From a virus, in IMG/VR virus record IMGVR_UViG_3300032308_002246, positions 109,963 through 173,962 of that record: a stretch of DNA of 64,000 nt; one strand, written 5' to 3'. The translations under genes and the position numbers were made by a program. This document shows, one piece after another, positions 16,353-45,969 of this stretch (positions within the stretch are counted from its first letter, which is position 1; each line of letters begins with the position of its first letter). The notes beneath the pieces were generated by a model, which was given only the letters and a program-made list of their open reading frames with translations, was not told where the DNA came from and did not search any database.

Positions 16353-19300
16353 ATGGCAGCATATACACGCAAACAATATTCGGGCGCTGCTCGTAATACG
16401 ACTACAACAACACTCTTGACGAATGTTGGAACAACAGTTGACATTACAGCGACCACTGGATGGCCATCTATTGCTGGCATCCCTTTTTATGTTGTAATCA
16501 GCCCATCTTCAATCTACGAAGAAAAGTGTCTTGCAACCATATCTGGCTCAACCCTCACTCTTGATAGAGCAAAAGATGACACTACTGCGTCAGAGCACCC
16601 AATCGGCTCAGTTATTTACCCAGTATTTACCGCAAACGACGCAGATGAAGCAAACGAACTTGTCTCAAAACTTACTACTACAGGCGACCTTCTCACCACG
16701 GACGGAACCAATCTGCTCCGTTTGGGAGTTGGCGAAGATGGCTACTTTCTAAAAGCAAGTAGTTCTGCATCAGCTGGTATCGAGTGGGCCTCAATCCCGA
16801 CAATCAACAACCTCAATGACATTGGCGATGTAACAATCAATGATGTTGAAGAATCAGATTTTCTTGTTTACAAAGCCTCGGCTTCTGCATGGATTAACGA
16901 AACAATCCACTTCATCACCGTCTCCGACACAGAGCCAACTGATGAAATAAGACAAGGCGACCTGTGGTACAACTCAAGTGAACTTGAGCTTTATACCTAT
17001 TACTCAAACAATTGGGTGCAAGTAACCCTCACCCCAGAATTTCTGAAAGTTGAAGAACTTGACAACGTTTACATTGACAACGCAAATGCTGGCGATGTTC
17101 TAACTTTTGACGGCCTTGACTGGTACAACGACAATGTAGTCAGTCTTTTGGGGCCAGATATATCTGCGGAAACCGTAACGGCTTCAGTATTCACTGGAAA
17201 CTTAACTGGAAACTCCGACACGGCAACTGCGTTAGAAACACCACGGACAATATCCCTATCTGGTGATGTTTCTGGCTCGGTTTCTTTTGACGGCTCACAA
17301 GATGTTTCCATATCTGCAACAGTTCAAATAAACTCCATAACCCTTGGAACCGACACAACTGGCAACTATGTAAATGATGTCGTAGCTGGAACCGGAATCT
17401 CAGTTACTCACACACCTGGAGAAGGTTCATCAGCAACTGTCGCAATCAATGCAACACTAGACAACCTTTCAGATGTAACTGTTCCATCTCCAACCTCTGG
17501 AGATTTCTTGAAGTGGAACGGTACGGCTTGGGTTAATGACCCAATCAACCTTGGCACCGATACTGCTGGGAATTACATGTCTGACCTTACACAGGGCACT
17601 GGTGTAACGATTACCCACACACCTGGCGAAGGCTCAAATGCAACTATCGCAATTGGTCAAGCAGTAGCGACTTCTTCGTCAGTACAGTTTGCTGCTGTTA
17701 CTGCGCCACTAGTTGGCAATGCATCAACGGCTTCAGCATTGCAAACAGCACGGGCTATCTCGTTGACTGGCGATGTTTCTGGTTCTGTTTCATTTGATGG
17801 TTCTGCAAATGCAAGCATCACTGCAACGATTCAGCCAAACTCCGTAGCTTTGGGCACGGATACAACTGGCAACTATATGTCTGACCTCACACAAGGCACT
17901 GGTGTAACGATTACGCACACACCTGGGGAAGGTTCCAATGCAACCATTGCGATTGGACAGGCTGTTGCAACTAGTTCTTCAGTTTCGTTTGCAAGACTAG
18001 AAACTACGGGAGATGTTTTAGTCGGCGGAAATTTAACCGTCAATGGAACTACCACGACATTAAACACCGAGACGTTATTGGTTGAAGACAACATAGTTGT
18101 TTTGAACTCTGGAATTACAGGTTCACCAACACTTAACTCTGGAATTGAAGTTGAGCGTGGAACTTCGGATAACGTATCAATGCGTTGGAATGAGTCAACA
18201 GACCGCTGGGAATTCACTAACGACGGAAGTGCATACAATAACGTCCTTCTGAAGAGCGATATCAGCTTGAATGATATCTCTGACACAGTAATTACGTCTG
18301 CGGCAAACGGTCAACTACTCGAATTTGATGGAACAAACTGGGTTAATGCGGTTCGCCCATCCAGCGAGCCGATGGGGCACGAGAATAAAGCTGACAGCGT
18401 AATTTCGTTCAACGAAGGCACAAGAACATTCTCCATAGCACCAGCATCTACCTCTTTTACGGTTTGGTGTGCTGGAAAACGTTTCGTAAAGACAACAACA
18501 GAAACTGTTCAAATTCCAGATACATCTGGTTTGTATTATATCTACTACAACTCAAGCGGAGTGCTTTCATATAGAACTACATACTTCGTTTGGGATACAG
18601 ACGCACCAACTGCTTATGTTTACTGGAATGAAGTAGACAACAAGGCTTACTTCTTTGCTGATGAACGTCACGGTGTAACACTCGATTGGGCAACACACGA
18701 ATACCTGCACAGAACTCGCGGTGCAGCAATCGCTAATGGATTCGGTGCAAATAACTACATTCTTGATGGCAATGGTTCATTAGATTCTCACGCAAAACTA
18801 GATATTGCTAATGGAACATTCTTTGACGAAGACCTTCAAGTTGACATTGCACATTCCGCAACCCCAACAGCAAATACATGGGAACAAGTACTTCAAGGCA
18901 ATGCAGAGATTCCAGTTTTTTACAGACTAAATAATCACTGGGTAAAGGATTCCGCAACTGAATTCCCAATGAAGCAGGGAACCGACAGGCCAAGATATAA
19001 CCTTAATACTGCTGGAACATGGTCAACACCAGATGTAGCGAATAACCACTTTGGTGTGTCTTGGATTATTGCTACGAATAACCTGAATGAACCAGTTATT
19101 GCAATTCTTGGTCAGGGTTCTTACACTAATAACGGTTCAGCGCAAGCGGAGTTTTACGCTTCACTTGATTTAGATGGATTCCCAATCGTTGAGTTTCGCC
19201 CTCTTTACAAGATTATTTATGAGTGCAAGACTTCATACACAAATACCCCAAGCGCACGAATAACGGATGTTATTGACCTAAGAAGCGTCATTTCTTCAGA

Positions 19301-19952
19301 CCAGGGTGTAGGTACAACACCAGTTTCTGACCACGGTTCAATGACTGGTCTTGCTGATGATGACCACACTCAGTATTTAACCGATGCGCGTCATGATGCT
19401 CTTGACCACACAACGGCAATAGGTTCTGCTTCGCTTGACGACATCGGCAATGTCTCGGCTTCAGCTGCTGCTTCTGGAGACTTTTTAAAGTACGACGGAG
19501 CCAATTGGGTTAATGACCCAATCAACCTTGGCACCGACACTGTCGGCAACTATATGGTCAACGTGTCTGCAAGCACCGGACTCTCAATCTCTCACACTCA
19601 GGGTGAAGGTTCGACTGCGACAATTTCAACAACTGGTGTTCAGACGCTTGGCGCAAAGGCCGGCAACTACACGCTTGCTGCTGGTGATGCTGCAGAAACA
19701 ATCATTATTATGGACTCAAGCTCCGCCAACGACTTGACTGTCCCAAGCGCTTCAGCTGTTGCGTTCGGTACTGGCACAAGCATCACCGTTGTTCAGCGAG
19801 GTACTGGCAAGACAAGAATCCTTGCAGGAGCAGGAGTAACGCTCTTGGCAACTCCTGGTCTTTTCCTAAGGGCAAGATACTCTTCATGCACAATAGTCAA
19901 AACAGAAAATGCAAACGAGTGGTTTGTTATAGGTGACTTGGCGGCATCGTGA
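16353..19952 (+). CDS. Long tail fibre protein ending in the shared C-terminal adaptor-like domain
   Basis: Repeated fibre modules (L.DV...GD.L.WNG..WVN, LGTDT.GNY, RTISL.GDVSGS.SFDGS). C-terminus NYTL...ANDLTVP...WFVIGDLAAS. Confidence 0.85.
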   Translation: MAAYTRKQYSGAARNTTTTTLLTNVGTTVDITATTGWPSIAGIPFYVVISPSSIYEEKCLATISGSTLTLDRAKDDTTASEHPIGSVIYPVFTANDADEANELVSKLTTTGDLLTTDGTNLLRLGVGEDGYFLKASSSASAGIEWASIPTINNLNDIGDVTINDVEESDFLVYKASASAWINETIHFITVSDTEPTDEIRQGDLWYNSSELELYTYYSNNWVQVTLTPEFLKVEELDNVYIDNANAGDVLTFDGLDWYNDNVVSLLGPDISAETVTASVFTGNLTGNSDTATALETPRTISLSGDVSGSVSFDGSQDVSISATVQINSITLGTDTTGNYVNDVVAGTGISVTHTPGEGSSATVAINATLDNLSDVTVPSPTSGDFLKWNGTAWVNDPINLGTDTAGNYMSDLTQGTGVTITHTPGEGSNATIAIGQAVATSSSVQFAAVTAPLVGNASTASALQTARAISLTGDVSGSVSFDGSANASITATIQPNSVALGTDTTGNYMSDLTQGTGVTITHTPGEGSNATIAIGQAVATSSSVSFARLETTGDVLVGGNLTVNGTTTTLNTETLLVEDNIVVLNSGITGSPTLNSGIEVERGTSDNVSMRWNESTDRWEFTNDGSAYNNVLLKSDISLNDISDTVITSAANGQLLEFDGTNWVNAVRPSSEPMGHENKADSVISFNEGTRTFSIAPASTSFTVWCAGKRFVKTTTETVQIPDTSGLYYIYYNSSGVLSYRTTYFVWDTDAPTAYVYWNEVDNKAYFFADERHGVTLDWATHEYLHRTRGAAIANGFGANNYILDGNGSLDSHAKLDIANGTFFDEDLQVDIAHSATPTANTWEQVLQGNAEIPVFYRLNNHWVKDSATEFPMKQGTDRPRYNLNTAGTWSTPDVANNHFGVSWIIATNNLNEPVIAILGQGSYTNNGSAQAEFYASLDLDGFPIVEFRPLYKIIYECKTSYTNTPSARITDVIDLRSVISSDQGVGTTPVSDHGSMTGLADDDHTQYLTDARHDALDHTTAIGSASLDDIGNVSASAAASGDFLKYDGANWVNDPINLGTDTVGNYMVNVSASTGLSISHTQGEGSTATISTTGVQTLGAKAGNYTLAAGDAAETIIIMDSSSANDLTVPSASAVAFGTGTSITVVQRGTGKTRILAGAGVTLLATPGLFLRARYSSCTIVKTENANEWFVIGDLAAS

Positions 19953-20911
19953 TTCCGGGCAATCAAGCCAGTGGTGGAAAGTTTATTGACCCACCAGATT
20001 CAATATCTGTAGTTCCAAACGCTCTAGGCGGTGCCAGCGACATAGTTATCAATCACACTGGTTATAAAGGGAAATCTGGGTCAGTTAAATTCAGGGTCAC
20101 TTCAAACACTGGGGTCAGTTCTGTTTCTGAAGCCACAAGTGGAACGTCTAGGTCCATGTCTCTGACTGGATTAAACAATGGCGTTAGCTACACGTTTTCA
20201 GCAGTCACAATTGAGTCTCAGTCTTCTGTCGAATCTTTATCTGCTGTAACTTCATCTTCATCACTTGTTGCAGGAGTTCCAACTGCCCCAGCTCAACCAA
20301 CTGTTTCTGCTGGTAATGGTCAAGTAACTGTATCGTGGAGCGAACCAGCAAATAACGGTGCAGCTATTACTAGTTATATTGTTTACTGGTCAACATCATC
20401 TGCTGCTATTCAAAGTTGGTCAAACTCGGTAAACACTGGTTCGACATCCACGTCTTATACCGTTACTGGATTAAGCAATGGAACCGCATACTATTTTACA
20501 GTTATTGCAGTCAACGCTACTGGTCAGAGTGCAAGGTCAGCTGTTTCAAGTGGAGCAACACCAGTGGTCCCAGGGCCACCACCTCCTCCGCCATGCTCTT
20601 GTGACGGTGTAGCCAGAAGACAGTACGGTTCATTTGCTCATCTCGACCCAGCCGGTTTTGGTTGGACATGTGACGGAACAACGAGCTACGAGTACTACAC
20701 ATATGGAACATGTGTTGGATGCCCTGGTGAAGGTGGTTACAACGGAGCATTAAGAAACGGTGTTTGTGGTTATGTCGCGCCTGCTCCTCCGCCTCCTTCT
20801 CCTCCGCCCCCTTCTCCTCCACCTCCATCGCCGCCACCCGCTCCTCCTCCTTGCTCAATATGCTGCTCTGGATGCTTTATAGACCCAAAGCTTGGACCAA
20901 TTTGTTGTTAG
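19949..20911 (+). CDS. FN3-domain 'tip' protein with Cys-rich and Ser-Pro4 tail (cassette 1 putative substrate)
   Basis: GTGA overlap with the fibre stop. Two FN3 repeats (GL.NG..Y.F), then PPPPPP, a 6-Cys block, SPPPP repeats and CSICCSGC...ICC. Confidence 0.75.
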   Translation: MIPGNQASGGKFIDPPDSISVVPNALGGASDIVINHTGYKGKSGSVKFRVTSNTGVSSVSEATSGTSRSMSLTGLNNGVSYTFSAVTIESQSSVESLSAVTSSSSLVAGVPTAPAQPTVSAGNGQVTVSWSEPANNGAAITSYIVYWSTSSAAIQSWSNSVNTGSTSTSYTVTGLSNGTAYYFTVIAVNATGQSARSAVSSGATPVVPGPPPPPPCSCDGVARRQYGSFAHLDPAGFGWTCDGTTSYEYYTYGTCVGCPGEGGYNGALRNGVCGYVAPAPPPPSPPPPSPPPPSPPPAPPPCSICCSGCFIDPKLGPICC

Positions 20912-20947: not shown

Positions 20948-21478
20948 ATGAGCAACGCTGAAGAAATTTGGATACCGCGAGAACCAACAGAATCAGAATA
21001 TACATTTCAAGGCTGGTTTAATTGGGAAAACAAATTTGGTGAATTTGGTACTCCTGGATACTGGGATTTTGTAGAACAAACAAAAATTCCGTCTGTTTTT
21101 GGGGACGATAATCCTAGAGATGTTTATTTCACGCTCTATAGACAAGACGGAGACGGCCTGCTTCTAGCAGTAATTCTTAGATACCGTGATGAATCAGGGG
21201 AGCTTCATCCACTTTTAATGCTGGTTCATCCAGACCATCGGGGGAAGGGAATTGCAACTCAAGTGCTTCTTCGCATGGAAGAAAAATTTATCAACGAAGA
21301 AGCCCATGTATATGGGTACACGGTAGAGGACTTTCGAGCACTACCAAGAGCAGAACGAGCCGCTTTGGTTATTCCTCCAAAATGGGACGTACCAACCAAT
21401 GAAGCTGGAGCGGGTTTTGCAACCCATGCAAGCAAGATGTTTTATACGGTTGAAAAAGATTTCACAGTAGAGCCGTAA
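20948..21478 (+). CDS. GNAT family N-acetyltransferase
   Basis: Acetyl-CoA motif A 'VHPDHRGKGIATQVL' and downstream 'N.AG..F'. Confidence 0.8.
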   Translation: MSNAEEIWIPREPTESEYTFQGWFNWENKFGEFGTPGYWDFVEQTKIPSVFGDDNPRDVYFTLYRQDGDGLLLAVILRYRDESGELHPLLMLVHPDHRGKGIATQVLLRMEEKFINEEAHVYGYTVEDFRALPRAERAALVIPPKWDVPTNEAGAGFATHASKMFYTVEKDFTVEP

Positions 21479-21479
21479 G

Positions 21480-21707
21480 ATGTCTGCCTATCAGGAGTGG
21501 AAGAAAAAACTTGGAGATACACGCCCGTGGGATGTTGTTAACCCAAACATAGAAAAAACCACAGATGAAGAGGCAGAAAGAAGATTTTCGATTTGCCGAG
21601 AATGTCCAAGCCTGCTTGCGGTCACCAGCCAGTGCAGAGAATGCGGATGCTTCATGAAGTTAAAGGTGAAGATACAAGAAGCAACGTGCCCCTTGCAAAA
21701 GTGGTAG
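21480..21707 (+). CDS. Small six-Cys protein (DUF6171-like), copy 1
   Basis: R..IC..CP.L.....C.ECGCFM..K......CP..KW. Confidence 0.7.
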   Translation: MSAYQEWKKKLGDTRPWDVVNPNIEKTTDEEAERRFSICRECPSLLAVTSQCRECGCFMKLKVKIQEATCPLQKW

Positions 21708-21734: not shown

Positions 21735-22322
21735 ATGAAGTACATCAACGTAAATGGCGTATGTGTTTACAGGAATGCAATTATCAATCCCTCTGAGATA
21801 ATAGAAGCCTCTGAGCTGTTAAGCATCTCGAAAGACAGCCGAGGCGATTGGACCAAATCGACAGTAATTGACACCGAGGGGAAGGTCTTTGTTTCTGAAG
21901 TAAGGACAAACCAGTTGATGTTCACCCCAACGCCAACTCAAAGGGGGGACGAGTCGTCGGCAGAGGTTATGCTGGCGAATAAAATTCACGAATATGTGAT
22001 TCCTTGTGTCCAAAACTTTGCGGCGAAATTTGGTCTTTCAATCAAGTTCCAATCTACAAACGGATATCAAATTCTCAAGTATTCAGTTAACGAACATTAC
22101 GTATCCCACCTTGATGATGGTGAAAAAACCAGACGGTACGCTTCTGCCGTTGCATACCTAAACGACGACTACGAAGGTGGCGAACTATATTTTCAGGATT
22201 TGAATTTCACATATCAGCCGGTAGCCGGGGATGTTGTAATTTTCCCATCTGGAGCACCATTTAGGCATGAGGCAAAACCCGTAATCAGCGGCATAAAGTA
22301 CTCAATAGCTAACTGGTGGTAA
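21735..22322 (+). CDS. 2OG-Fe(II) oxygenase, prolyl 4-hydroxylase-like
   Basis: HLD...YLNDDYEGGEL.F...H...KYS. Confidence 0.9.
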   Translation: MKYINVNGVCVYRNAIINPSEIIEASELLSISKDSRGDWTKSTVIDTEGKVFVSEVRTNQLMFTPTPTQRGDESSAEVMLANKIHEYVIPCVQNFAAKFGLSIKFQSTNGYQILKYSVNEHYVSHLDDGEKTRRYASAVAYLNDDYEGGELYFQDLNFTYQPVAGDVVIFPSGAPFRHEAKPVISGIKYSIANWW

Positions 22323-22384: not shown

Positions 22385-22567
22385 ATGCCAATCGTCTTCC
22401 CACAATCGCCGTCAATAAATGACGAATTTTCTGTTGCAGGTAAATCTTGGAGCTGGAACGGGTTCCGTTGGCAAAGATTTAAATCTGCGATAATTGACGG
22501 CGGGTTTGCCAACATTGAAATAAATGTTTCAGACGACGAACTAATTGCTGACGGAGGCGATGCTTAA
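22385..22567 (+). CDS. Small tail-associated protein
   Basis: 'FP.SP..ND.....K.W.WNG.RW' domain, also found at the start of 29775; 'DGG' motifs. Confidence 0.55.
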   Translation: MPIVFPQSPSINDEFSVAGKSWSWNGFRWQRFKSAIIDGGFANIEINVSDDELIADGGDA

Positions 22568-25500
22568 TGGCTTATAAGAAAATACTCTTTCGCCGCGATA
22601 CGTCTTCAAATTGGGCTAGCGCAAACCCTATTTTGGCTGCTGGTGAAATCGGTCTTGAGTCCAACACCAACAAGATAAAACTTGGTAATGGCTCGACTAG
22701 ATGGAATGCCCTGTCGTATTTTTACGGAAGTCTTGACACTACTGGAATTGACGCACTTAGCGACGTAGTCATAACAAGTGCACAAAATGGCGATTTTCTT
22801 CGCTGGAACGGAACTGCCTGGGTAAACGACCCGGTCAATCTTGGGGATGACACGGTCGGCAGCTTTGTCCAGAACCTTGTTGCTGGAACCGGCGTAACGC
22901 TAACCAACAACACTGGCGAAAAGGCTACTCCAACCGTGGCTATTGGCCAGGCTGTTGCAACTTCATCTTCTGTACAATTTGCCGCAGTTACTGCACCAGT
23001 TATCGGTAACGCAAGCACCGCAAGCTCGCTGCAAACAGCGCGAACAATTCAAGTTAGCGGCGATGTTTCTGGTTCTGCATCTTTTGATGGTTCACAAAAC
23101 ATAAACATCACTTCGGAAATCCAGCCAAACTCGGTAGCTCTTGGCACTGACACCACTGGTGATTACGTAACCTCACTTGTTGCTGGAACTGGCGTTACCC
23201 TTAGCAATAACTCAGGTGAATCAGCATCACCAACTATTGCAATTGGCCAAGAAGTAGCAACCTCATCATCCGTTACATTTGCTCACATTAATGGAAACGT
23301 AACAGGAAATTTGACAGGAAATGCCTCAACCGCTGCTGCACTACAAACACCTCGAACTATTTCTCTTACTGGTGATTTGTCTGGTTCTGTGTCATTTGAT
23401 GGTTCAAACAATGTTTCAATTACCACTACGATTGAACCAAACTCTGTAGCTCTTGGCACCGACACAACCGGAAACTACATGGCCGAAGTTACTGGTGGCA
23501 CTGGTATAACAGTTACCCACACCCCAGGTGAAGGTTCAAACGCAACAATATCAATCGGGCAGGCTGTAACAACAGCAGATACACCAACTTTTGCTGGAGC
23601 ATACCTAGACGCAATAAGAGTCGGTGTTACAAACGCTAATACGATTGACACTGCATCTGGTGGTTTGACTCTTGACTCAACTGGTGGAACAACAACTGTT
23701 GATGACAACTTGGTAGTTACTGGAACGCTGACAGTATCTGGTTCTGTTGCATACATAAGCACAACCAACTTAGAAGTTGGAGACAGTGTAATTATTCTTA
23801 ATCACGATGAAACTGGGTCTCCATCTCAGAACGCCGGTATAGAGATTGAACGCGGAACATCAACAAATGTCGTTCTTCATTACAACGAAACTTCTGATGT
23901 TTGGGAATTAACCAACAATGGTTCTACTTATTCTCCAATCGAAACTACTTCGACAGTAGAAACAAAGATTAAGCAACAGCTGTGGCTTAATGACGTATAT
24001 GCCGCAACAACTGGCGTGCTTCCAAACTCTCCTACATATACCGCTGGCAGCGCAGACGCAAACGGTGGAACTGGTGTTGGAGCAAAACTCACAGCAACAA
24101 CAAACGGAGAACTATCAATTGACGGCGCTCCAGCCGCTTTGAACTACCGAGTTCTAGTCAAGGACCAAGCCAACAATTTACACAACGGAATCTACAAAGT
24201 AACCGCAGCTGGTTCACCATCTACAACATGGGAACTGACAAGAGCAGCAGACTTTGATAACTCAACATTTGGTCAGGTTACTTACGGAAAATCAGTAAGA
24301 ATAGCGACTGGCGATATAAACATATTGCAAACTTTCATCCTCACGTCGTTTGGTACTGTTTACCTAAACGAGCTTGAGGAAATGGTTCACGTAATTGGGA
24401 CTGACCCAATTTCATGGTCTCAAGCGAGCGGCAAGGCAGTTCTGATTCCAGGCAATGGTTTGGAAATAACAAACAATGTTCTGGCGCTTCCATCAATCAC
24501 TCAGTCGAATACAGCATCAACGTCCGGTGGTTTTAATTTTGTACAGGGCGTAAACGTTGACTCATATGGTCGCTTACTTGGTGTTACAACAAATGATGTT
24601 CTTATTGACTTGGGCATAAATACTCAGGGCGACTATGTACAAAGCGTCTCTGCTTCAGTTAATACTGGCATTACAGTTTCTGGAACTGGCGAGGGCGCAA
24701 CTGTATCTGTTGGTTCAAATGCAACTCCAGACAACACAATTAACGCAATAGTTATGCGTGATGGAAGCGGAAACTTTATTGCTGGGAACATTACAGCAGA
24801 ACTGACTGGAAACGCTTCATCAGCGAACACCCTTTATGCCACACGTTCAATCGGTTTAACCGGAGACCTAAGCGGCTCTGTTTCGTTCGACGGTTCTCAA
24901 GATGTTGTTATAAATGCAATAATTGAATCAAACTCAATCGCTCTTGGTGGTGACACAACTGGCGACTATGTAAGCACGATTACTCAGGGCACTGGTGTAA
25001 CGGTGACTGGCGGTACTGGTGAGACATCAACGCCAACAATCGCAATTGGTCAAGATGTTGGCACCAGCTCTTCCGTAACTTTCGCACAAGTTAATGCACT
25101 TCTTGTCGGAAACGTAAATGGAAACGTAACTGGGAATGTCACTGGAAACGTTAATGGAAACGTCACTGGAACCCTAACTGGAAATGTTTTTGGAAATGTT
25201 ACTGGTAGTTCTGGAACCGTAACCTCAATAGGCACGCATGGACTGGATGCGCTTTCAGACGTAACTGCTCCGTCGCCAGCATCGGGCGAGTTCTTGAAAT
25301 GGAACGGCTCTGCTTGGGTGCCAGATGTAATCGATTTGTCAACAGACACAAGTGGAAACTTTGTTTCCTCAATCAATGCTGGAACTGGTGTTTCGCTTAC
25401 GAACGGTGTTGCCCAAGAAGCTGGAACACCAACCATAAACATTGGTCAGGCTATAGGCACAACAAATTCACCGTCGTTTGCAAACCTTTCAGTAGGTAAT

Positions 25501-26694
25501 GCACAGGTAAACGCAACAAATCTTACCTATAGCGGTGGCACCAACCTTGCTACAGTAACCGCCATTGACCACGGTCTTGCCATTGGGGCAAGGATAACGG
25601 TATCAGGAGCGACTCAAACTGGATACAACGGAACATATTCAATCGTTTCGGTTCCAACTTCTTCAACATTTACATACCAACCAGCAGTTGGTCCATCTGC
25701 AAACATAGCCTCTGGCACATATTTGGTTTATGTTGCTGGCGCTATAACTTTTGAAGGTTCAACTGATGACTCGTTTGAAACAACGATTGTTGCTACAGAC
25801 CCAACGGCAGACAGAATTATTTCTTTGCCAGATGCGACAACTCAATTAGTTGGTAGAGACACAACAGATACTCTTACGAACAAAACTCTAACAAGCCCAA
25901 CTATCACTGGTGTATCACCAGTAATCACTTTGGGTGGAGATTTGAGTGGTTCAGCTACATTCACAGACCTTGGCAACGCAACGCTTACAGCGACAATCGC
26001 TGCAAACTCTGTGGCTCTTGGAACAGATACAACCGGTAGCTACGTTGAAAGCCTTGTACAGGGTACTGGTGTTACAATCATCAACAACTCAGGCGAAAGT
26101 GCAACACCGACAATCTCCATTGGTCAGGCAGTTGGGACCAGTGCATGCGTTCAGTTTGACACTTTGACTGTAACAAACCTGTTTGCAACAAACAGCCAGT
26201 CAAGCAATGCGTCTGAGCTGAATGTTTCGGACAGCAAGATTGTTTTGAATGCAGGAACTACTGGCGCTCCAACGGTTAATGGTTCTATCATCATTGATAG
26301 AGGCTCAAGTGCAAGCGTTGAAATTCGATGGAACGAAACCAGTGACAGATGGGAAGCAACATCTGACGGCACGACATACACTCAAATAGCTGCTGGCGCA
26401 AAAATGACCATTGGAGAAACACCTCCTTCGTCGCCAGCAAATGGTGACTTCTGGTTTGAGTCGGACTCCGCTATCACGTTCGTTTATTACGACTCGTACT
26501 GGGTTCAAATTGGTTCATCCGGAATTGGTGCTGTAACAACGGCATCCGCTCCATCTAACCCTGCAAACGGCCAAATATGGTTCAATAGCACAACCGACGA
26601 AATGTATGTTTATTATGACGGCGCATGGGTCCTGGTAAATAGCGCAACTAACACCAGTGACATAGAAATTGCGTCTATCATGGGAGCGTATTAA
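22567..26694 (+). CDS. Long tail fibre protein with Mtd/hyaluronidase-N-like N-terminal domain
   Basis: N-terminal 'RRDT..NW...NPILA.GEIG.E..T..K.G.G...W..L.Y'. Same shaft modules as 16353, plus (GNV[TN])n. Confidence 0.85.
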   Translation: MAYKKILFRRDTSSNWASANPILAAGEIGLESNTNKIKLGNGSTRWNALSYFYGSLDTTGIDALSDVVITSAQNGDFLRWNGTAWVNDPVNLGDDTVGSFVQNLVAGTGVTLTNNTGEKATPTVAIGQAVATSSSVQFAAVTAPVIGNASTASSLQTARTIQVSGDVSGSASFDGSQNINITSEIQPNSVALGTDTTGDYVTSLVAGTGVTLSNNSGESASPTIAIGQEVATSSSVTFAHINGNVTGNLTGNASTAAALQTPRTISLTGDLSGSVSFDGSNNVSITTTIEPNSVALGTDTTGNYMAEVTGGTGITVTHTPGEGSNATISIGQAVTTADTPTFAGAYLDAIRVGVTNANTIDTASGGLTLDSTGGTTTVDDNLVVTGTLTVSGSVAYISTTNLEVGDSVIILNHDETGSPSQNAGIEIERGTSTNVVLHYNETSDVWELTNNGSTYSPIETTSTVETKIKQQLWLNDVYAATTGVLPNSPTYTAGSADANGGTGVGAKLTATTNGELSIDGAPAALNYRVLVKDQANNLHNGIYKVTAAGSPSTTWELTRAADFDNSTFGQVTYGKSVRIATGDINILQTFILTSFGTVYLNELEEMVHVIGTDPISWSQASGKAVLIPGNGLEITNNVLALPSITQSNTASTSGGFNFVQGVNVDSYGRLLGVTTNDVLIDLGINTQGDYVQSVSASVNTGITVSGTGEGATVSVGSNATPDNTINAIVMRDGSGNFIAGNITAELTGNASSANTLYATRSIGLTGDLSGSVSFDGSQDVVINAIIESNSIALGGDTTGDYVSTITQGTGVTVTGGTGETSTPTIAIGQDVGTSSSVTFAQVNALLVGNVNGNVTGNVTGNVNGNVTGTLTGNVFGNVTGSSGTVTSIGTHGLDALSDVTAPSPASGEFLKWNGSAWVPDVIDLSTDTSGNFVSSINAGTGVSLTNGVAQEAGTPTINIGQAIGTTNSPSFANLSVGNAQVNATNLTYSGGTNLATVTAIDHGLAIGARITVSGATQTGYNGTYSIVSVPTSSTFTYQPAVGPSANIASGTYLVYVAGAITFEGSTDDSFETTIVATDPTADRIISLPDATTQLVGRDTTDTLTNKTLTSPTITGVSPVITLGGDLSGSATFTDLGNATLTATIAANSVALGTDTTGSYVESLVQGTGVTIINNSGESATPTISIGQAVGTSACVQFDTLTVTNLFATNSQSSNASELNVSDSKIVLNAGTTGAPTVNGSIIIDRGSSASVEIRWNETSDRWEATSDGTTYTQIAAGAKMTIGETPPSSPANGDFWFESDSAITFVYYDSYWVQIGSSGIGAVTTASAPSNPANGQIWFNSTTDEMYVYYDGAWVLVNSATNTSDIEIASIMGAY

Positions 26695-29774: not shown

Positions 29775-30554
29775 ATGGCAGCGATTGACTTCCCAGCAGA
29801 TGCTCAATCCGGCGACCAGCACGTAAGCGCTGGCAAGACCTGGACATATAACGGTTCTGGTTGGGTGCTAGTAACTATCCCGACAGCAATGTTTACAGCA
29901 GACTCGGTAAGCGGCTCGTCTCTTGTTGATGGAACCGTTGGGTTGCAAAAAATATTTAACGAAGGAGCAGGTCAGATAATCGTTTTTAACGGTTCTGGAG
30001 TTGCAACTGCAGTTGACTCAACTGGCGATGTGGTGATAAACGCTTCCGGTGTTTCTGCTATTTCTGCAGGAGCAATTGTTAATGCTGACGTAAATGCTTC
30101 TGCGGCAATCGATAAAACAAAGATTGCTGGAACAGCGGTTGTTCTTACGGACTCGTCTGTAGTCACCTCGACAATGATTGCTGACTCAACAATCGTTGAT
30201 GGCGACATCAGTGCTACAGCAAATATTGCTCAGGGAAAAATCGCAGATATCTTGACAAACGCGCAAGCCGCAAGCTACACACTTGTACTCGCCGACAAGA
30301 ATAAGATTGTCGAAATGGGTGTTGGTTCCGCAAACGACTTGACCGTCCCCCCAAACTCATCAGTGGCCTTTCCAATCGGCAGCCAAATTCAGGTTCTCCA
30401 GACAGGGACTGGTAAGACAAGAATTTTGGCAGGCGCTGGTGTCACCGTGAACGCAACTCCAGGAGTGTTCATGAGGGCGCAGTGGTCAGCTGTTACGCTA
30501 CTAAAGAGAGCATCAGATACTTGGGTGGCAACGGGAGACCTTTCGGCTTCATAA
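29775..30554 (+). CDS. Short fibre/adaptor ending in the shared C-terminal domain (cassette 2)
   Basis: 'IVNADVNASAAI..TK' repeats, then SYTLVLAD...ANDLTVP...TWVATGDLSAS, homologous to the end of 16353. Confidence 0.75.
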   Translation: MAAIDFPADAQSGDQHVSAGKTWTYNGSGWVLVTIPTAMFTADSVSGSSLVDGTVGLQKIFNEGAGQIIVFNGSGVATAVDSTGDVVINASGVSAISAGAIVNADVNASAAIDKTKIAGTAVVLTDSSVVTSTMIADSTIVDGDISATANIAQGKIADILTNAQAASYTLVLADKNKIVEMGVGSANDLTVPPNSSVAFPIGSQIQVLQTGTGKTRILAGAGVTVNATPGVFMRAQWSAVTLLKRASDTWVATGDLSAS

Positions 30555-30557
30555 CTT

Positions 30558-31592
30558 ATGGCAGTTTCAAGCAACAACCAAATCGATTCTGGAGGTAAAG
30601 CCCCTTCAGCGCCAACGATTGGTACCCCACTGCTTGCAACAGGAACTTCAGCAAGCGTAGTTTTCACCCCATCGACATATATTGGTAAAGGCACAGTAAC
30701 CTACAGAGCCGCTGCAGACTCCGGTCAAACTGCTACTGGTAATAGCAGCCCAATTGTTATCACTGGGTTGACGCAGGGTTCAACAAGAACATTTACTGTT
30801 ACGGCTGTTTCGTCAAACGGAGTTGAAACATCTTCCGAAGTAAGTGCCTCGCTGGTTATGGGAGTTGGTCCATCTGCACCAACAATCGGAACAGCAGTCA
30901 TAGTTCAGAACGTGGACAGAGCAATTGATGTTCCGTACACCGCAGGAGCAACTGGGACAAACCCAACAGTAACCTATACGGCAACATCAAGTCCTAGTGG
31001 ATTAACCGCTACCGGTGCAAGCCCAATACGCATAACTGGACTCACGGCAGGAACCGCATACACATTTACGGTTTCAGCTTCTACGGAATTTGGAACTGCA
31101 ACTTCCGCCGCTTCCAACTCGGTGACAGCTGGAAATAGACCTGGTGCTCCGACTATTGGTACCGCTACTGGCGGAAACGCTCAAGCGACTGTCACATACA
31201 CCGCAGGAGCTGCTGGGACGGGCGCTACGACATTTACGGCCATTTCATCTCCAGGGAACGTTCAGGCCTCTGGAGCGTCTCCTATCACCGTTACAGGCCT
31301 CACCAACGGCCAAGCATACACTTTCACTGTAAGAGCAACCAACTCCTATGGATTTCAGACCTCTGGGTCTTCAAACTCCGTAACACCAGTTGCCCCTCCG
31401 TACTTCCCACCGTTCTTTCCGCCGTTTTTCCCACCTTACTTTCCGCCGTTTTTCCCACCATTTTTCCCTCCGTATTTCCCACCATTCTTTCCTCCTTTCT
31501 TTCCTCCTTATTTCCCACCCTTCTTCCCGCCTTTCTTTCCACCATTCTTTCCGCCATTCTTCCCGCCGTACTTCCCTCCGAGGTTCAAGTAG
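30558..31592 (+). CDS. FN3-domain 'tip' protein with (PP[FY]F)16 tail (cassette 2 putative substrate)
   Basis: Three FN3-like repeats (P.APTIGT...SPI..TGLT.G..YTF.V.A), then 16 tetrapeptide units. Confidence 0.8.
   Translation: MAVSSNNQIDSGGKAPSAPTIGTPLLATGTSASVVFTPSTYIGKGTVTYRAAADSGQTATGNSSPIVITGLTQGSTRTFTVTAVSSNGVETSSEVSASLVMGVGPSAPTIGTAVIVQNVDRAIDVPYTAGATGTNPTVTYTATSSPSGLTATGASPIRITGLTAGTAYTFTVSASTEFGTATSAASNSVTAGNRPGAPTIGTATGGNAQATVTYTAGAAGTGATTFTAISSPGNVQASGASPITVTGLTNGQAYTFTVRATNSYGFQTSGSSNSVTPVAPPYFPPFFPPFFPPYFPPFFPPFFPPYFPPFFPPFFPPYFPPFFPPFFPPFFPPFFPPYFPPRFK
31395..31586 (+). repeat. Coding 12-nt tandem repeat encoding PPYF/PPFF x16
   Basis: 16 units, the last being PPRF. Synonymous codons vary (CCA/CCG/CCT/CCC, TTC/TTT). 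Confidence 0.95.
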
Positions 31593-31595
31593 AAA

Positions 31596-32174
31596 ATGAA
31601 ATCAATTTATGACATTGACTTGAAGTCATGGGATGGCGAACGAGATGTCCTCAAAGACTGTGAAGGTAAAGTCACACTAATAATCAATACAACTGGTCAT
31701 TGTGGAAATGCGCCACAGTTTGGGATTATTGAGGGTCTTTACCAAAAGTACAAAGACCTTGGATTCAATGTTGTCGCTGTTCCTACAAATGACTTTTGCG
31801 GCAATGGAGTCACTTACGGAGAATACGCAGACGGCGTAAAAGATGCAAAGCACGCTCGAGATTATGGTGTCAATGAATGGAACGCTTCGTTTGATTTTTC
31901 GGAGCTAGTTGTATCTTGGCATGAAAAGCTAGAGGAAAAGCAAAATACCCCCCATGAGCTTTACCAAAATCTTATGACCAATGAGGAAAAAAGACTAAAG
32001 CAAGACATGACTGGGAACTTTGAAAAGTTTTTAATCAACAAAAAAGGAGAAAGAGTAGCAAGACTCACCAACGGTGTACTACTTGAATATGCGTACAATG
32101 ACGGTTATTGCGAGTCTCCAGAAGTTGAGCTTGAAAAACTATCTAAAATGATTGAAGACGAGTTGGCAAAATGA
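31596..32174 (+). CDS. Glutathione peroxidase-like protein
   Basis: GKVTLIIN..GHCGN.PQF, VPTNDF, GNFEKFLI.K.G. Confidence 0.8.
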   Translation: MKSIYDIDLKSWDGERDVLKDCEGKVTLIINTTGHCGNAPQFGIIEGLYQKYKDLGFNVVAVPTNDFCGNGVTYGEYADGVKDAKHARDYGVNEWNASFDFSELVVSWHEKLEEKQNTPHELYQNLMTNEEKRLKQDMTGNFEKFLINKKGERVARLTNGVLLEYAYNDGYCESPEVELEKLSKMIEDELAK

Positions 32175-33064
32175 CGACAATTGACACATATCTAAAAGGT
32201 GACTACAAAAAAGCTTACGAAGTTATTCACCCCATTTCCCTTTATGACATCCCTATTGCTTCTGCGGATGGAAAAGTAACAGATTTATTTGCTGACAGAA
32301 AAGGCAAAGTAACGCTTATATTCAACTGTGCTGCTGGTTGCGGAAATATCCCACAGCACGGAGTTATTGAGCAGCTGAACCAGCGCTATGCAAATGAAAA
32401 AGACTTTGACATCATTGCAGTAGTTGTTGATGACTTTCAGTGCCACGGATACAAAGAATTCCAAGATGGGATTGCCTCGTACTGTCAAACAGTTGGCCTT
32501 GACATGTCGGTTGGTGAATTTGCCAAAAAGTATGCTGAGGAAAATTTTGGCACCACTTTTGAGTTCTCAGAACTCACAAATGCCAGATTTGACAAAGTTA
32601 CATATGAATCAGATTTTGCGCCAAATACGAGCATAAACCAAACACAAAATTCTCTTTGGTACTACCTAACCGAGGGCTATAAGGCAACAGTTAACAAACT
32701 TGGCATACCCTACACAGGAGAAGTTGTTCCTTGGTCAAACGGACAAGAGGAGTACCTAGGTGGAGATGCTACAAAAGCATTCCCAATAACAGGAAATTTT
32801 ACAAAATTTTTGATTGATAGAACCGGAACTAAAACAAAGCGATACTCCAACGGCTTTCTTCTTGGAGAGCGAGATGTTGATGGCGAAATTTATCCTTGGC
32901 TAAACGAAAAGCTTTTAGATGATGGCAAAAAAGACTGGAAACCGTTTACAGGCAAAAAAGAAAACGGTGAGCCATGGGTCGAACCAAGCGCCAAAGGACA
33001 AGGCGTTGAATTATCGCTTGATTTGATTAGCCGTGACATTGAAGATTACCTAGCTCAACAGTAA
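32171..33064 (+). CDS. Glutathione peroxidase-like protein (divergent, with insertions)
   Basis: GKVTLIFNCAAGCGNIPQH...GNFTKFLIDRTG. Confidence 0.7.
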   Translation: MTTIDTYLKGDYKKAYEVIHPISLYDIPIASADGKVTDLFADRKGKVTLIFNCAAGCGNIPQHGVIEQLNQRYANEKDFDIIAVVVDDFQCHGYKEFQDGIASYCQTVGLDMSVGEFAKKYAEENFGTTFEFSELTNARFDKVTYESDFAPNTSINQTQNSLWYYLTEGYKATVNKLGIPYTGEVVPWSNGQEEYLGGDATKAFPITGNFTKFLIDRTGTKTKRYSNGFLLGERDVDGEIYPWLNEKLLDDGKKDWKPFTGKKENGEPWVEPSAKGQGVELSLDLISRDIEDYLAQQ

Positions 33065-33088: not shown

Positions 33089-33706
33089 ATGGAATCACCA
33101 TGGAAAATACAGCCTGGATTTTTTGGAACTGGTCCTGAAAACATTCATGTAATTAAGGATTTCATTGATAAAAAAGATGTTGAAACCATATCCTCATTTG
33201 CAAAAACCATAAATGAGTGGTCAAACGGCTCAGACGAAGACATCTTTGATGAAAACGGTGTATGCACTTATAGCGCTGCATACTGGAATGACAGGCAGTG
33301 TACTTGGGAAATTCTGCAAAGAATAAATAAAGATGTCTATGATTTGATTGATTTCTATTTAGACAAAATGGCTGTTACTGCAGGCGAAATTTTTGGATGC
33401 AAACTACAGAAACGACCCCCCTGCATTGTTAGATGGTTCAAGGGTATTGAACAACGTCCTCATGCTGACAAGCAAATGAACGATGGGTCCCCAAATCCTT
33501 TCCCCACATACGATATAAACTCGCTTTTCTACTGGAATAATGACTTTGAAGGTGGCGAGCTTTATTACCCACAGCACGATGTTGTCGTGAAGCCAGAGCC
33601 TGGGCTAGCCGTAATCCACCCCGGAGACATAAACTATCTACACGGTGTCAAGCTCGTTACGAGCGGGGAGCGATACACCTCTCCGGCATTCTTTACAGTG
33701 GAGTGA
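33089..33706 (+). CDS. 2OG-Fe(II) oxygenase, P4H-like
   Basis: HAD...YWNNDFEGGEL...LHGV...RY. Confidence 0.9.
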   Translation: MESPWKIQPGFFGTGPENIHVIKDFIDKKDVETISSFAKTINEWSNGSDEDIFDENGVCTYSAAYWNDRQCTWEILQRINKDVYDLIDFYLDKMAVTAGEIFGCKLQKRPPCIVRWFKGIEQRPHADKQMNDGSPNPFPTYDINSLFYWNNDFEGGELYYPQHDVVVKPEPGLAVIHPGDINYLHGVKLVTSGERYTSPAFFTVE

Positions 33707-33707
33707 C

Positions 33708-34370
33708 ATGGGACAAGAACCGCGTTTTATAAATACTCCAAGAATTGGATTGTTTGTTGATTACTTGCCAAAAGAAGAATGGGAAGTAGTAAAAGAATAC
33801 TGCGAAAACAATGAGGCAAAATTTGAGTTCGTTGGGCACAATCCTGAAATTGGATGGAAAAAGAAAACACACTCACGTCACCCAGAGATAACTTTTCAAA
33901 CATCTTTTCTCCCAACCAAAGAGGAAATTGACTCCGGTGGTTACATGACCAATGGCGATAACTACAAGATTTCCATGCATGAACCAGCAGACGAGCAGGT
34001 TAAAAAAATATTGCTATGGATGTTGATAAATGTTAGAGACACAATAAAAACAACCTACGGCAATAAAACATACTTTGAAAGCGGCCCATGGTTGTCAATG
34101 GCCAAAGAAGGCGACAACATGGGGTTGCACTGCGATGGCGTGTTTCTGGACAAAGTTGGAGCTGTTACTGATTTTTCATGCGTTTACTATGTGAACGACG
34201 AATATGAAGGCGGAGAAATTTACATGCCAATTCTTGGCGTAGCTATTAAACCTAAAGCCAATTCTCTTCTAATTTGGTCTCACACTTGGCATGAAGACAT
34301 GGCTCACGGAGTTAGGCCAATCATTTCTGGAACTCGTTATATGTCGCAAGGGTTCTTTACCACTGTATAG
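33708..34370 (+). CDS. 2OG-Fe(II) oxygenase, P4H-like
   Basis: HCD...YVNDEYEGGEI...AHGV...RY. Start moved to ATG 33708. Confidence 0.88.
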   Translation: MGQEPRFINTPRIGLFVDYLPKEEWEVVKEYCENNEAKFEFVGHNPEIGWKKKTHSRHPEITFQTSFLPTKEEIDSGGYMTNGDNYKISMHEPADEQVKKILLWMLINVRDTIKTTYGNKTYFESGPWLSMAKEGDNMGLHCDGVFLDKVGAVTDFSCVYYVNDEYEGGEIYMPILGVAIKPKANSLLIWSHTWHEDMAHGVRPIISGTRYMSQGFFTTV

Positions 34371-34379
34371 ACTGTTGGC

Positions 34380-35045
34380 ATGAAAACAGAAATACTTAGT
34401 GACCCGCGCCTTGGGGTTCTTGTATACAAGAATGCACTGCCTAAAGAACTGGACATCATAAATAGGCTTGAGTCAACTATCGGAGACAGCACGACGATGC
34501 CTTTCATGTGGTGCGAGGCTCTTGTTGGTTATTCACAAAAGATGCCAGAGTATCGAGACTGTGTTGACTGCAAAATTGGACAGGTCCACATGGACCATCT
34601 GCACCATTACCCACAGTTCGCAGAGCTAAAGAACATTTACAACGACACGGCGAATGCAATCCGCGCATGCATGAATGATTATCAAAGCCGCTACAACATA
34701 AATATGGAGTATATGGAGGCAATTAACTTCGTTCGATACGGAGCGAATCAGCACTTCCAGGTCCACACTGACCACGGGTTTTCTTATACTTGCACAGTTT
34801 CTTCTGTCGTCTACTTCAATGACGACTATGAAGGCGGTGAGCTCTGGTTCCCTTACCTAGATTTGACATTCAAACCAGAAACTGGGGACATAGTGATGTT
34901 CCCGTCAACATTTATTTATGCACATGCTGCAAAACCAGTTACCAGCGGCGTTAAGTACTCTGGAGTAACGATGTTTGATTACAACGACAGGAATCACGAC
35001 ATCAAGGGAAGCTACGACGGAGTAAAGGCTCCAGCTGCTCAGTAG
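34380..35045 (+). CDS. 2OG-Fe(II) oxygenase, P4H-like
   Basis: HTD...YFNDDYEGGEL...AHAA...KYS. Confidence 0.9.
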   Translation: MKTEILSDPRLGVLVYKNALPKELDIINRLESTIGDSTTMPFMWCEALVGYSQKMPEYRDCVDCKIGQVHMDHLHHYPQFAELKNIYNDTANAIRACMNDYQSRYNINMEYMEAINFVRYGANQHFQVHTDHGFSYTCTVSSVVYFNDDYEGGELWFPYLDLTFKPETGDIVMFPSTFIYAHAAKPVTSGVKYSGVTMFDYNDRNHDIKGSYDGVKAPAAQ

Positions 35046-35593
35046 TGGCTGTTGTAGGCATCTACTCTCCGGGGGCTATGGGTTCTACCCTTGCTTATTC
35101 CTGTTCTGTAAATGGCCACAAAACAATATGGGCATCAGAGGGTCGTTCTGAAAAAACATTAATCCGTGCAAAAAAATTTGGCATAGAAGATGTCGTTTCA
35201 CTTGAAAACCTTTTGGGAAAAAGCGATTTTATATTCTCGATTGCCAGCAACTTTGACGCATTTGAATTTGCTCGTGTTATTGCATCAATGAGTTTCAAAG
35301 GAATCTATGTTGACTTCAATACCATGTATACAGATACCGACGGAACCGAACTTGAGAACATACTCACCCCAAATAAAATAAAGTACGTTGAAGGCGCACT
35401 TCGTGGCTGGCCAGTAAAAGAACCAGGAGAAGAAATAACCAGCGAGAAAACAATGTATCTATCTGGTCTACATGCGAATACAGTAAAAGAACTATTTGGA
35501 AATTTTTGGAGAATAAGAACCATGCCCAAATCAGCAAAATTGTTAAACCGAGTACTTGCAGAGGAGTTGGCGATTATCTATGGTCAAGGTTAA
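35045..35593 (+). CDS. NAD(P)-binding Rossmann protein (6PGD/HIBADH N-domain-like)
   Basis: VGIYSPGAMGS.LA, 'SDFIFSI', 'YVDFNT', 'YVEGA'. Confidence 0.7.
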   Translation: MAVVGIYSPGAMGSTLAYSCSVNGHKTIWASEGRSEKTLIRAKKFGIEDVVSLENLLGKSDFIFSIASNFDAFEFARVIASMSFKGIYVDFNTMYTDTDGTELENILTPNKIKYVEGALRGWPVKEPGEEITSEKTMYLSGLHANTVKELFGNFWRIRTMPKSAKLLNRVLAEELAIIYGQG

Positions 35594-36284
35594 TCTAAAG
35601 AGAACATACGATAATCCACCAGAAATAAGACAGTCACGAATAAACCGTGACTGGATGGATGAAACATATAAAAAGCACGCATACCAGTGCTTGCCAATGA
35701 CTTTTGCAAATGTATACGGATGGGAGCTAGTGCTCCCGCAGACAGTTATTGCTCAATGGGACGGCGGCAACACTGTTCCTACGATTCTTGAGGGCGAATC
35801 ATACGGTGGCAGACAGTTGGCCTACGGCGGAATAATAGGCATGGTTTCATTCTCTACAGGGTGGATTTTTGGGACAGACACTGGATACGAAACATTTATT
35901 GGTGGCTCACCCAACTATGTTAGAGAAGATGCACAGGCACTATCCGCAATCATTCCGAGTAGCTGGTGGCCAGATGAGTTCCAAATGAACTGGAAGATAA
36001 ACAAAGTAGGAGAACCAGTTGTTTTTGAAGCCGGTATGCCTTTTATGTTTTTTTCAATATTTGAAAGCAATGTATTAGAAAATGTAGATTTCACTGTTGA
36101 TAACCTTTGGGATGATAAAGAGCTAATGGATTCTCGACAAAAATACGGTGACTTGAAAATGAAGAACAATCAAGAGCAGCCATGGACCTGGACAAAAGGC
36201 ATAAAAACAGGACTTGATGCTGACGGCAACAAGATTGGTCCAACATTTACAGGGATGCCAAAACTGCAAATTCCAGGACAATAA
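35580..36284 (+). CDS. DUF6065-like protein
   Basis: 'R.WMD....HAYQCLP...AN..GWE...G.PN.......L..II...W....F.MNW.......V.F..G.P'. Recognised from memory. Confidence 0.65.
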   Translation: MVKVNLKRTYDNPPEIRQSRINRDWMDETYKKHAYQCLPMTFANVYGWELVLPQTVIAQWDGGNTVPTILEGESYGGRQLAYGGIIGMVSFSTGWIFGTDTGYETFIGGSPNYVREDAQALSAIIPSSWWPDEFQMNWKINKVGEPVVFEAGMPFMFFSIFESNVLENVDFTVDNLWDDKELMDSRQKYGDLKMKNNQEQPWTWTKGIKTGLDADGNKIGPTFTGMPKLQIPGQ

Positions 36285-36286
36285 CA

Positions 36287-36904: not shown

Positions 36905-37116
36905 AACTTGGAAAATACGACTCTCTTATGGCAAAAAACAGAGCTGCGCGATTCTTGGCTGCGTCAATAGGGGAGACGAGCCAGTTGATGACTCTCGAGA
37001 ATATGTCTCTTGTCTATTCTGGGGAAAACCCATATGAAGAAGGAACCATAGAGCACAATGCCTTCAGGCTGTTGTCTAGCGAGTATTCAGCATTGGAAGC
37101 CCTAAAAAATGGATGA
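36901..37116 (+). CDS. Small hypothetical protein
   Basis: ATGA-coupled ORF in the enzyme operon. Confidence 0.55.
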   Translation: MKLGKYDSLMAKNRAARFLAASIGETSQLMTLENMSLVYSGENPYEEGTIEHNAFRLLSSEYSALEALKNG

Positions 37117-37297
37117 GCCACAGGATTTTAAAATGAGCACCAGAAAAGGTGAAGCCATAACAGACACCGAAGAGTGGGATAACGAGATTATTGAATGGGA
37201 CCCAAGCACTGGTGTTTACTATGTTGCTGGTAAGCCGGTATCAATGTGTCAGGGTGTAGCAATGTTTGATGTTAAGGATAATGATGAGCAAGTATGA
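37109..37297 (+). CDS. Small acidic hypothetical protein
   Basis: Overlap-coupled ORF. Confidence 0.5.
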   Translation: MDEPQDFKMSTRKGEAITDTEEWDNEIIEWDPSTGVYYVAGKPVSMCQGVAMFDVKDNDEQV

Positions 37298-44326: not shown

Positions 44327-44328
44327 AG

Positions 44329-45152: not shown

Positions 45153-45156
45153 TTTT

Positions 45157-45957: not shown

Positions 45958-45969
45958 AAGCAATGATTA

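Follow-up and report, generated by a model that had tools for sequence, protein, structure and literature searches.

In secreted glycoside hydrolases, Pro/Thr linkers carry small carbohydrate-binding modules that are locked by disulfides. Multiple 2-oxoglutarate (2OG)-Fe(II) oxygenase genes have been known in T4-like cyanophage-type genomes since 2005–2010, and we know of no substrate for any of them. Published work treats the phage 2OG-Fe(II) oxygenases as unexplained and proposes roles in DNA repair or at the level of 2OG (PMC3037559), and the one characterised viral prolyl 4-hydroxylase (P4H) is that of chlorovirus PBCV-1 (PMC3634087). Here, we describe an FN3 protein with a cysteine-rich C-terminal tail that is encoded near a P4H-like gene in a 64,000-nucleotide stretch of viral DNA (IMG/VR record IMGVR_UViG_3300032308_002246, positions 109,963 to 173,962; hereafter the window). 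The window is the final 64 kb of this 173,962-bp record, which has direct terminal repeats and a GC content of 43.8%. Judged from its sequence, the gene product is a small protein accessory to the tail-fibre module, with an N-terminal motif and two FN3-type domains as its constant part. The last 113 residues read as a poly-Pro hinge, a conserved domain, a fast-evolving Pro spacer, and an end-piece that is exchanged between phages as a module. On balance, we lean towards a model in which this tail is a disulfide-locked, knob-on-a-stalk tip module of the fibre accessory protein, with hydroxylation of the spacer as a plausible part.

The protein is 320 amino acids (aa) long (window positions 19949–20911, stop codon included; plus strand, as are all of its parts), and seven viral contigs carry orthologues at 92% identity. 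Its cysteines are confined to one end, with none in residues 1–207 and 12 in the final 113. Open reading frames (ORFs) of at least 150 aa in the window average 0.84% Cys; against this background the probability of at least 12 Cys in 113 aa is 3e-10, so the clustering is not due to chance. The protein begins with a putative docking motif, MIPGNQASGGKFIDPP, and a first FN3-like domain (aa 1–107, 19949–20269). The motif is kept in proteins with differing tails (P0009, P0018, P0023, P0090, P0140, L028, L035, and L050). The second FN3 domain (aa 113–201, 20285–20551) matches Pfam PF00041 (E 2.6e-17), scoring 63.2 bits against a cut-off of 25. An earlier description of this stretch, made from the letters alone (the original prediction), had proposed two FN3 domains. 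The second stands; the N-terminal one (aa ∼18–107) falls below Pfam and is FN3-like by motif and by PHROG and paralogue matches only, with PHROG 6977 spanning residues 18–204.

Beyond the FN3 domains, reading of the ORF confirmed the proposed order of hinge, six-Cys block, Pro spacer, and six-Cys end. The hinge, read directly as PGPPPPPP (aa 208–215, 20570–20593), is poly-Pro or PFFPPYFPP in relatives. It leads into a Tyr/Gly-rich domain with six cysteines (216, 218, 241, 255, 258, and 273), which our alignments (A2 and A3) place at aa 216–275 (20594–20773). Next comes a Pro-rich spacer with (SPPPP)3 (aa 276–301, 20774–20851), which reads APAPPPPSPPPPSPPPPSPPPAPPP over aa 277–301 and whose DNA is a diverged 15-nt tandem repeat (3.1 copies, 87% matches). 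The protein closes with a 19-aa end-piece (aa 302–320, 20852–20908), CSICCSGCFIDPKLGPICC, which carries six cysteines in the spacing C-x2-CC-x2-C-x9-CC and finishes in DPKLGPICC. Both of the six-Cys mini-domains that had been proposed are therefore present, but they are unequal: the first belongs to a conserved family of 45–70 aa, and the second is an interchangeable end-piece.

The six-Cys block appears to represent a new, rare, and phage-only domain family. Alignments A2 and A3 draw on 45 distinct sequences obtained by searching viral and metagenome contigs. The domain was found at 40 viral and 41 metagenome loci, on ∼80 viral or lake-metagenome contigs overall. Eleven positions are invariant across the 45 sequences (C241, G243, Y247, Y249, C258, G262, G263, N265, A267, C273, and G274) and nine more are nearly so (among them C216, C218, G253, Y264, G266, G271, Y275, and P278), with the core C-[DEV]-G-x-x-[ST]-Y-[EQ]-Y ... 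C-[PAST]-G-[ET]-G-G-Y-N-[GP]-A ... C-G-Y. When 1.84 billion representative proteins were searched with a profile, 26 matched; ∼18 of these are true members, all of them phage-like FN3/fibre-type proteins. The remaining matches (long multi-repeat proteins; HYR_4C, Big_3_5) share only a C-[DE]-G-T-x-x-Y-x-Y hairpin and were judged not to be whole-domain homologues. With one genome taken per species, 185,579 prokaryote species gave no homologue of the domain. It is the small number of profile matches, together with this absence from prokaryote genomes, that makes the family appear rare and phage-only. The domain is also carried by unrelated protein bodies, and in P0003 it is 85% identical to the window's copy, against just 38% for the FN3 region, a difference that points to module exchange or to strong constraint on the domain.

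Searches for relatives of known structure or function returned little. Pfam, NCBIfam, and PHROGs have no match over the domain, and neither the tail nor the domain profile found more than chance-level hits among PDB sequences (RNase H, E 0.2; PHD finger, E 1.1). Likewise, blastn and tblastn searches with the region and the protein found no relative beyond FN3 among 50,697 phage records, and a feature search of the ESM Atlas gave no usable match. AlphaFold2 (AF2) modelling of the domain alone, with 27 sequences, was unusable (predicted local distance difference test (pLDDT) 50.6); the whole tail, with 45 sequences, reached a pLDDT of 68.9, with a beta-rich domain of moderate quality (pLDDT 56–75). 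Foldseek against the PDB and a wide VIA-align search found no solved fold similar to this tail model (best E 4.7; no Z of 2 or above). As the AF2 model is only moderate, the missing match is not evidence of a new fold. The likeness to disulfide-rich toxin peptides that the Cys density had suggested finds no counterpart, as neither the sequence nor the fold searches revealed similarity to toxin peptides. Nor does the tail correspond to an inhibitor cystine knot (knottin): the end-piece has its own spacing, given above, Pfam and PDB sequences yield no match, and the moderate model has no fold match. We also ruled out a ribosomally synthesised and post-translationally modified peptide precursor for the 19-mer, as leader and maturation enzymes are absent and the 19-mer sits on a structural FN3 protein.

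Two further observations concern the domain and its carriers. The stretch C241-D-G-T-T-S-Y-E-Y...C-x-x-C loosely resembles the epidermal growth factor (EGF) Asp/Asn beta-hydroxylation consensus C-x-[DN]-x4-[FY]-x-C-x-C, in a different register, and the enzyme beside the Cys tail is of P4H type, not AspH type. Separately, a class of Cys tails without FN3 has a conserved GASK..ANAAI..AGF.VG.VS.T stretch that, in some loci (L016–L018, 5779–6366; L041/L042), extends upstream of the first in-frame ATG, GTG, or TTG.

The tail cysteines probably form structural disulfides rather than metal sites, as predicted from how their numbers vary. The total per tail is even in 46 of the 47 distinct tails (range 8–24), and the domain itself holds 6, 8, or 10. 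An extra Cys in the N-loop and an extra Cys at the Y252 position are both present in 30 alignment rows and both absent in 12, with no mixed regular rows. Similarly, in one lineage (L039, P0128, and P0132) the CxC motif is short of one Cys and the CxxC motif of its first, both lost together, and the domain persists. Covariation of this kind predicts a bond between C255 and either C216 or C218. The cysteines are thus gained and lost pairwise and behave as disulfide partners. An alternative is that they bind metal, as Zn or Fe-S knuckles built from the CxC (216/218) and CxxC (255/258) motifs. In favour are the motifs themselves, the reducing cytoplasm in which the virion is assembled (a point that also tells against disulfides), and the weak, non-significant PHD-finger profile match. 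We nonetheless consider metal binding improbable. The domain counts step by two, not by four; a four-ligand site would not survive the loss of one ligand per motif, which is what the lineage above has undergone with its domain intact; the Cys domain has no conserved His; and Pfam matched no zinc-finger family. The PHD finger was the sole zinc-finger-like match, and four-ligand sets are not conserved as units. The proposal of disulfide- or metal-stabilised knots is accordingly supported in its disulfide half by the even totals and pairwise changes, and its metal half is disfavoured by counts that shift by two.

Downstream of the domain, the tail varies quickly. Compared with orthologues that are 96–99% identical in the FN3 part, the Cys domain retains 90–93% identity, the spacer 69–88%, and the end-piece 78–89%. 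In L021 the spacer is (PT)n and the end-piece is swapped for C-x3-C-x-K-G-x-C-x-C-I. Over all loci, the post-domain spacer may be SPPPP, SPPP, poly-Pro, PT, PA, APVI, VTPP, VSP, PSFG, mixed G/P, poly-G, T-rich, or missing altogether. There are at least five types of end-piece, counting the window's own, and some proteins have none. The window's type recurs nearly unchanged on L016, L018, and P0122, which have a different body and a different Cys-domain subtype, and the orthologues P0009, P0018, and P0023 have an end-piece and no first Cys domain. Comparison across related phages, which the original prediction had put forward as a check for hypervariability, thus gives a split answer: the spacer and end-piece are labile and exchanged, whereas the first Cys domain is conserved.

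This variability bears on the reading of Ser-Pro4 as an extensin-type hydroxylation signal, which did not hold up. Relatives that are 92% identical already have SPPP, poly-Pro, or PT in its place, and distant ones have PA, APVI, VTPP, VSP, or poly-G. The spacer (aa 276–301) is made of A, P, and S only and contains neither of the extensin Tyr cross-link motifs (YxY, VYK), and the genes between the two flanking fibres include no glycosyltransferase. Because Ser-Pro4 is not conserved and both the Tyr motif and a glycosyltransferase in the cassette are absent, the likeness to plant extensins is, at the level of residues, compositional only, and the analogy is not to be taken literally. In a true extensin analogue, Ser-Pro4 would be a specific recognition motif for hydroxylation followed by O-glycosylation, as plant hydroxyproline-rich glycoproteins undergo, and to this reading we give very little credence. 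The three SPPPP units and the P4H-like gene 824 nt downstream would fit such an analogue, and the PBCV-1 enzyme does act on viral Pro-rich repeats (PMC3634087). However, the Ser register is lost in the 92%-identical relatives, and elsewhere the enzyme stays beside PA, APVI, VTPP, and VSP spacers. What the phage shares with the Ser-Hyp4 extensins is thus three SPPPP units near a P4H-like gene; it differs in having an unconserved motif, only those three units, no Tyr cross-links, and no adjacent glycosyltransferases or secretory pathway.

A P4H-like gene had been placed ∼0.8 kb downstream of the tail, and it is there. Gene 21735 (21735–22322, plus strand, 195 aa) starts 824 nt past the tail-gene stop, after a GNAT and a DUF6171 gene. 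The product matches PF13640 (57.3 bits; cut-off 27) and encodes the catalytic residues H125-x-D127, H178, and K188, with the Lys 10 residues beyond the distal His, the arrangement of collagen-type P4Hs. Among PDB entries it best matches the Bacillus anthracis P4H structures 5hv0 and 3itq (E 8e-6), followed by P3H1 and PiuC, although similarity is weak. By residue pattern and profile, the enzyme is of P4H type, and peptidyl-proline hydroxylation is a plausible prediction for it. Nine further paralogues of 21735 lie in a 12-kb island (window 33089–44991), detected with a hidden Markov model built from the window's own copies.

To relate spacer and enzyme, we took 33 distinct loci in which the sequence continues for at least 1.5 kb downstream. 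A spacer counted as Pro-rich if a stretch of 14 aa or more, free of Cys, contained at least 6 Pro, and an oxygenase counted if its start lay within 1.5 kb. The oxygenase is present at 18/18 loci with a Pro-rich post-domain spacer and at 7/15 without one (raw Fisher p 4.6e-4). For example, in a collinear pair of loci, an inner PPPP linker and the oxygenase are both present in L046 and both missing from L045. Where the spacer is PA, VSP, or PPSGGGG, the oxygenase follows DUF6171 directly, and the poly-G loci L042, L063, and L087 keep GNAT and DUF6171 and lack the oxygenase. Homologues that drop the tail and keep the enzymes, the pattern that had been named as adverse to the idea, were not seen; the trend is the opposite, with lineages that lose the Pro-rich spacer losing the adjacent oxygenase.

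Several observations weigh against a functional link. On a tree of the Cys domain and DUF6171, the oxygenase state changes only three times, and with about four independent pairs a sign test is not significant and cannot reach significance. Seven loci retain an oxygenase with no Pro-rich spacer after the domain, and in most of these a long poly-Pro hinge precedes it; L045 has a poly-Pro hinge and no oxygenase. DUF6171-oxygenase pairs also occur in marine cyanophages without such a tail and so have a life independent of the tail protein, and the oxygenases adjoining tail genes are not all orthologous. As only three independent losses lie behind it, the association between spacer and oxygenase is suggestive, not proven. 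It is quite possible, if not quite probable, that the oxygenase, DUF6171, and GNAT are mere syntenic passengers acting on DNA, small molecules, or other proteins, and that the spacer is an unmodified linker. Such passengers would account for the pairs in tail-less cyanophages, the enzyme at seven loci without the spacer, and an association that is non-significant after phylogenetic control. They would also suit a genome in which 10 or more oxygenase paralogues are encoded, most of them in a separate island, and the DNA-repair or 2OG-level roles put forward in the literature (PMC3037559). They sit less easily with an enzyme at every one of the 18 Pro-rich-spacer loci, with all three enzyme losses falling on lineages without a Pro-rich spacer, with clean one-gene presence/absence contrasts in otherwise collinear loci, and with catalytic residues of collagen-P4H type, including the Lys 10 residues past the distal His.

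The arrangement of constant and variable parts suggests which end of the protein faces the host. Because the N-terminus is conserved and the C-terminal modules are shuffled between phages, we take the tail to be the host-facing end. The overlap of the gene's start with the upstream fibre's stop, and the recurrence of that fibre's last 99 aa ahead of the paralogous FN3 gene, point the same way. In the model that we favour, the FN3 protein would dock by its conserved N-terminus onto the distal domain of the upstream fibre, and all twelve cysteines would pair into disulfides once the virion meets oxygen. The spacer would form a stiff polyproline-II rod of ∼8 nm; the AF2 model has it as an extended segment (pLDDT 83–89). 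The P4H-like oxygenase and its DUF6171 partner could plausibly hydroxylate the spacer prolines. The tail would then point away from the virion and bind the host surface. We conjecture that the target may be a glycan, as the invariant tyrosines could form a flat aromatic surface such as sugar-binding sites use. Against this model as a whole, its virion location, outward orientation, disulfides, binding, and hydroxylation are all inferred, and, with a moderate AF2 model and no fold match, the carbohydrate-binding idea comes from composition only.

The reverse orientation, in which the Cys tail is a virion-proximal anchor or an inter-subunit disulfide cross-linker with the fibre and the FN3 domains are exposed and adhesive in the manner of Hoc, seems unlikely to us. 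As a matter of general knowledge, T4 Hoc-type decoration proteins do show Ig-like domains and bind the virion through the C-terminus. The final Cys lies 1–4 residues from the C-terminus in nearly all tails, and disulfide networks by which phage tails are locked have been described (PMC10811340). Nevertheless, a conserved N-terminal motif combined with C-terminal modules that are swapped and sometimes absent is the usual signature of a distal end, even Cys parity in a single chain argues for intrachain pairing, and the same Cys domain occurs on unrelated bodies.

The genomic setting is that of a fibre module. The tail-protein gene lies between two long fibre genes. The upstream one encodes a tail-fibre protein of 1199 aa (16353–19952, plus strand) with PHROG tail-fibre and structural-protein matches, and its TGA overlaps the GTG start of the tail-protein gene (GTGA). 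Residues 1101–1199 of this fibre are 55% identical to residues 163–259 of ORF 29775; the C-terminal domain of ∼99 aa thus also ends ORF 29775, directly before a paralogous FN3 protein, 30558. Almost everywhere among related loci, the FN3 tail-protein gene is preceded by a gene with this C-terminal fibre domain. The second pair (window 29775–31592) has the same design, and its FN3 protein 30558 ends with ∼64 residues of PPFF/PPYF repeats and no Cys domain. In L036, an orthologue of 30558 (60% identical) has a Cys domain inserted between PPYFPP and PSFG repeats. The cassette is closed by the next fibre gene, which encodes 1375 aa (22567–26694, plus strand) with an Mtd_N N-terminal domain (N-terminus of the major tropism determinant). 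Mtd-like targeting by a diversity-generating retroelement is ruled out, as the genome is without a reverse transcriptase: RVT_1 had no match in the whole 174 kb.

Between the tail-protein gene and the oxygenase lie a GNAT acetyltransferase-like gene (20948–21478, plus strand; Pfam PF00583, E 3.6e-6) and a gene for DUF6171, a small CxxC...CxxCGC protein (21480–21707, plus strand; Pfam PF19668). The GNAT gene is found 13–76 nt past the tail gene in many loci and is a frequent, not a constant, neighbour. DUF6171 is the most constant neighbour. It usually abuts the oxygenase and lies within 1 kb downstream in 28/29 loci with a Cys end-piece on the tail. Both here and in the marine cyanophages Sf-FS3 and S-SSM7, which are without the Cys domain, DUF6171 is encoded directly upstream of a 2OG-Fe(II) oxygenase gene, often overlapping it (L055, 2896–3619; L057, 2950–3814). 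The genome has three copies, the one above and two on the minus strand of the window (44925–45206 and 45790–45963). DUF6171 may be a partner subunit of 2OG-Fe(II) oxygenases, yet it is kept where the oxygenase is lost; a literature search on DUF6171 found no paper. The alternative of a dedicated chaperone for the Cys tail is weakened by the pairs with oxygenases in tail-less cyanophages and by the three genomic copies. The window also encodes three proteins of glutathione-peroxidase fold (31596–32171, 32171–33061, and 39849–40457; PF00255, two above the gathering score), whose genes adjoin the second tip gene and sit inside the oxygenase island. It is pure speculation that these are candidate thiol-oxidation helpers for Cys-rich virion proteins.

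The structural genes of this genome are of T4-like cyanomyovirus type, with ∼43% identity to S-RSM4 and S-PM2. The WhiB family is a hallmark of actinobacteria and their phages. Four WhiB-family genes are present, at positions 17314–17499 (minus strand), 21309–21497 (plus), and 39498–39689 (plus) of G000:C1 and at window position 63153–63344 (plus), so a lake actinobacterial host is likely. Together, these features suggest a T4-like myovirus of freshwater Actinobacteria.

What is new here is the Cys domain family, which stands within a known kind of fibre-tip system. To this we add a definition of the domain, parity and pairwise evidence for disulfides, the finding that Ser-Pro4 is not a conserved unit, and a phylogenetically controlled estimate by which the independent evidence for the enzyme link is still thin. 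Fibre tips decide which hosts can be infected, and the candidate tip here belongs to a family of miniature, disulfide-rich domains for which no relative has been described. The family is restricted to uncultured lake phages whose hosts are probably abundant freshwater Actinobacteria, and it offers a lead on host recognition where there are few cultured models. The tendency of a fibre-adjacent oxygenase to persist only beside a Pro-rich spacer provides a concrete and cheaply testable idea of a substrate. More tentatively, and with considerable doubt, large aquatic phages of this lineage might mature their fibre tips both by proline hydroxylation, through P4H-type oxygenases and DUF6171, and by oxidative folding of glycan-binding mini-domains with up to 24 Cys per tail, perhaps by means of their own glutathione-peroxidase-fold proteins. 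If so, a protein substrate would be found for the many 2OG-Fe(II) oxygenase genes that are still unexplained in cyanophage-type myoviruses, and a new receptor-binding domain family would be defined.

Among described systems, fungal CBM1 and the hevein-type CBM18 carbohydrate-binding modules (CBMs) offer a functional analogy, drawn from general knowledge. CBM families gave no Pfam match at E up to 1 and no fold match to the moderate model, and the Cys spacing differs. The shared plan is a body, a Pro-rich linker, and an even-Cys mini-module rich in Gly and Tyr, here with the conserved Tyr 247, 249, 264, and 275. Like modular phage fibre tips, the protein is encoded within a fibre module, in translational coupling with a fibre gene, and has a conserved N-terminus and shuffled C-terminal modules. 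It differs in that the candidate for binding is a disulfide-rich mini-domain of 45–70 aa on a low-complexity stalk, rather than a trimeric beta-helix, knob, or lectin-fold tip, and in that this domain has no Pfam, PHROG, or PDB relative. Finally, PBCV-1 likewise combines a virus-encoded P4H-type 2OG oxygenase with Pro-rich repeats of its own (PMC3634087), and 21735 has the P4H residue pattern. Here, the virus is a bacteriophage, the activity is predicted, the oxygenase is accompanied by a DUF6171 partner gene, and the candidate substrate is a fibre-tip spacer encoded two or three genes upstream.

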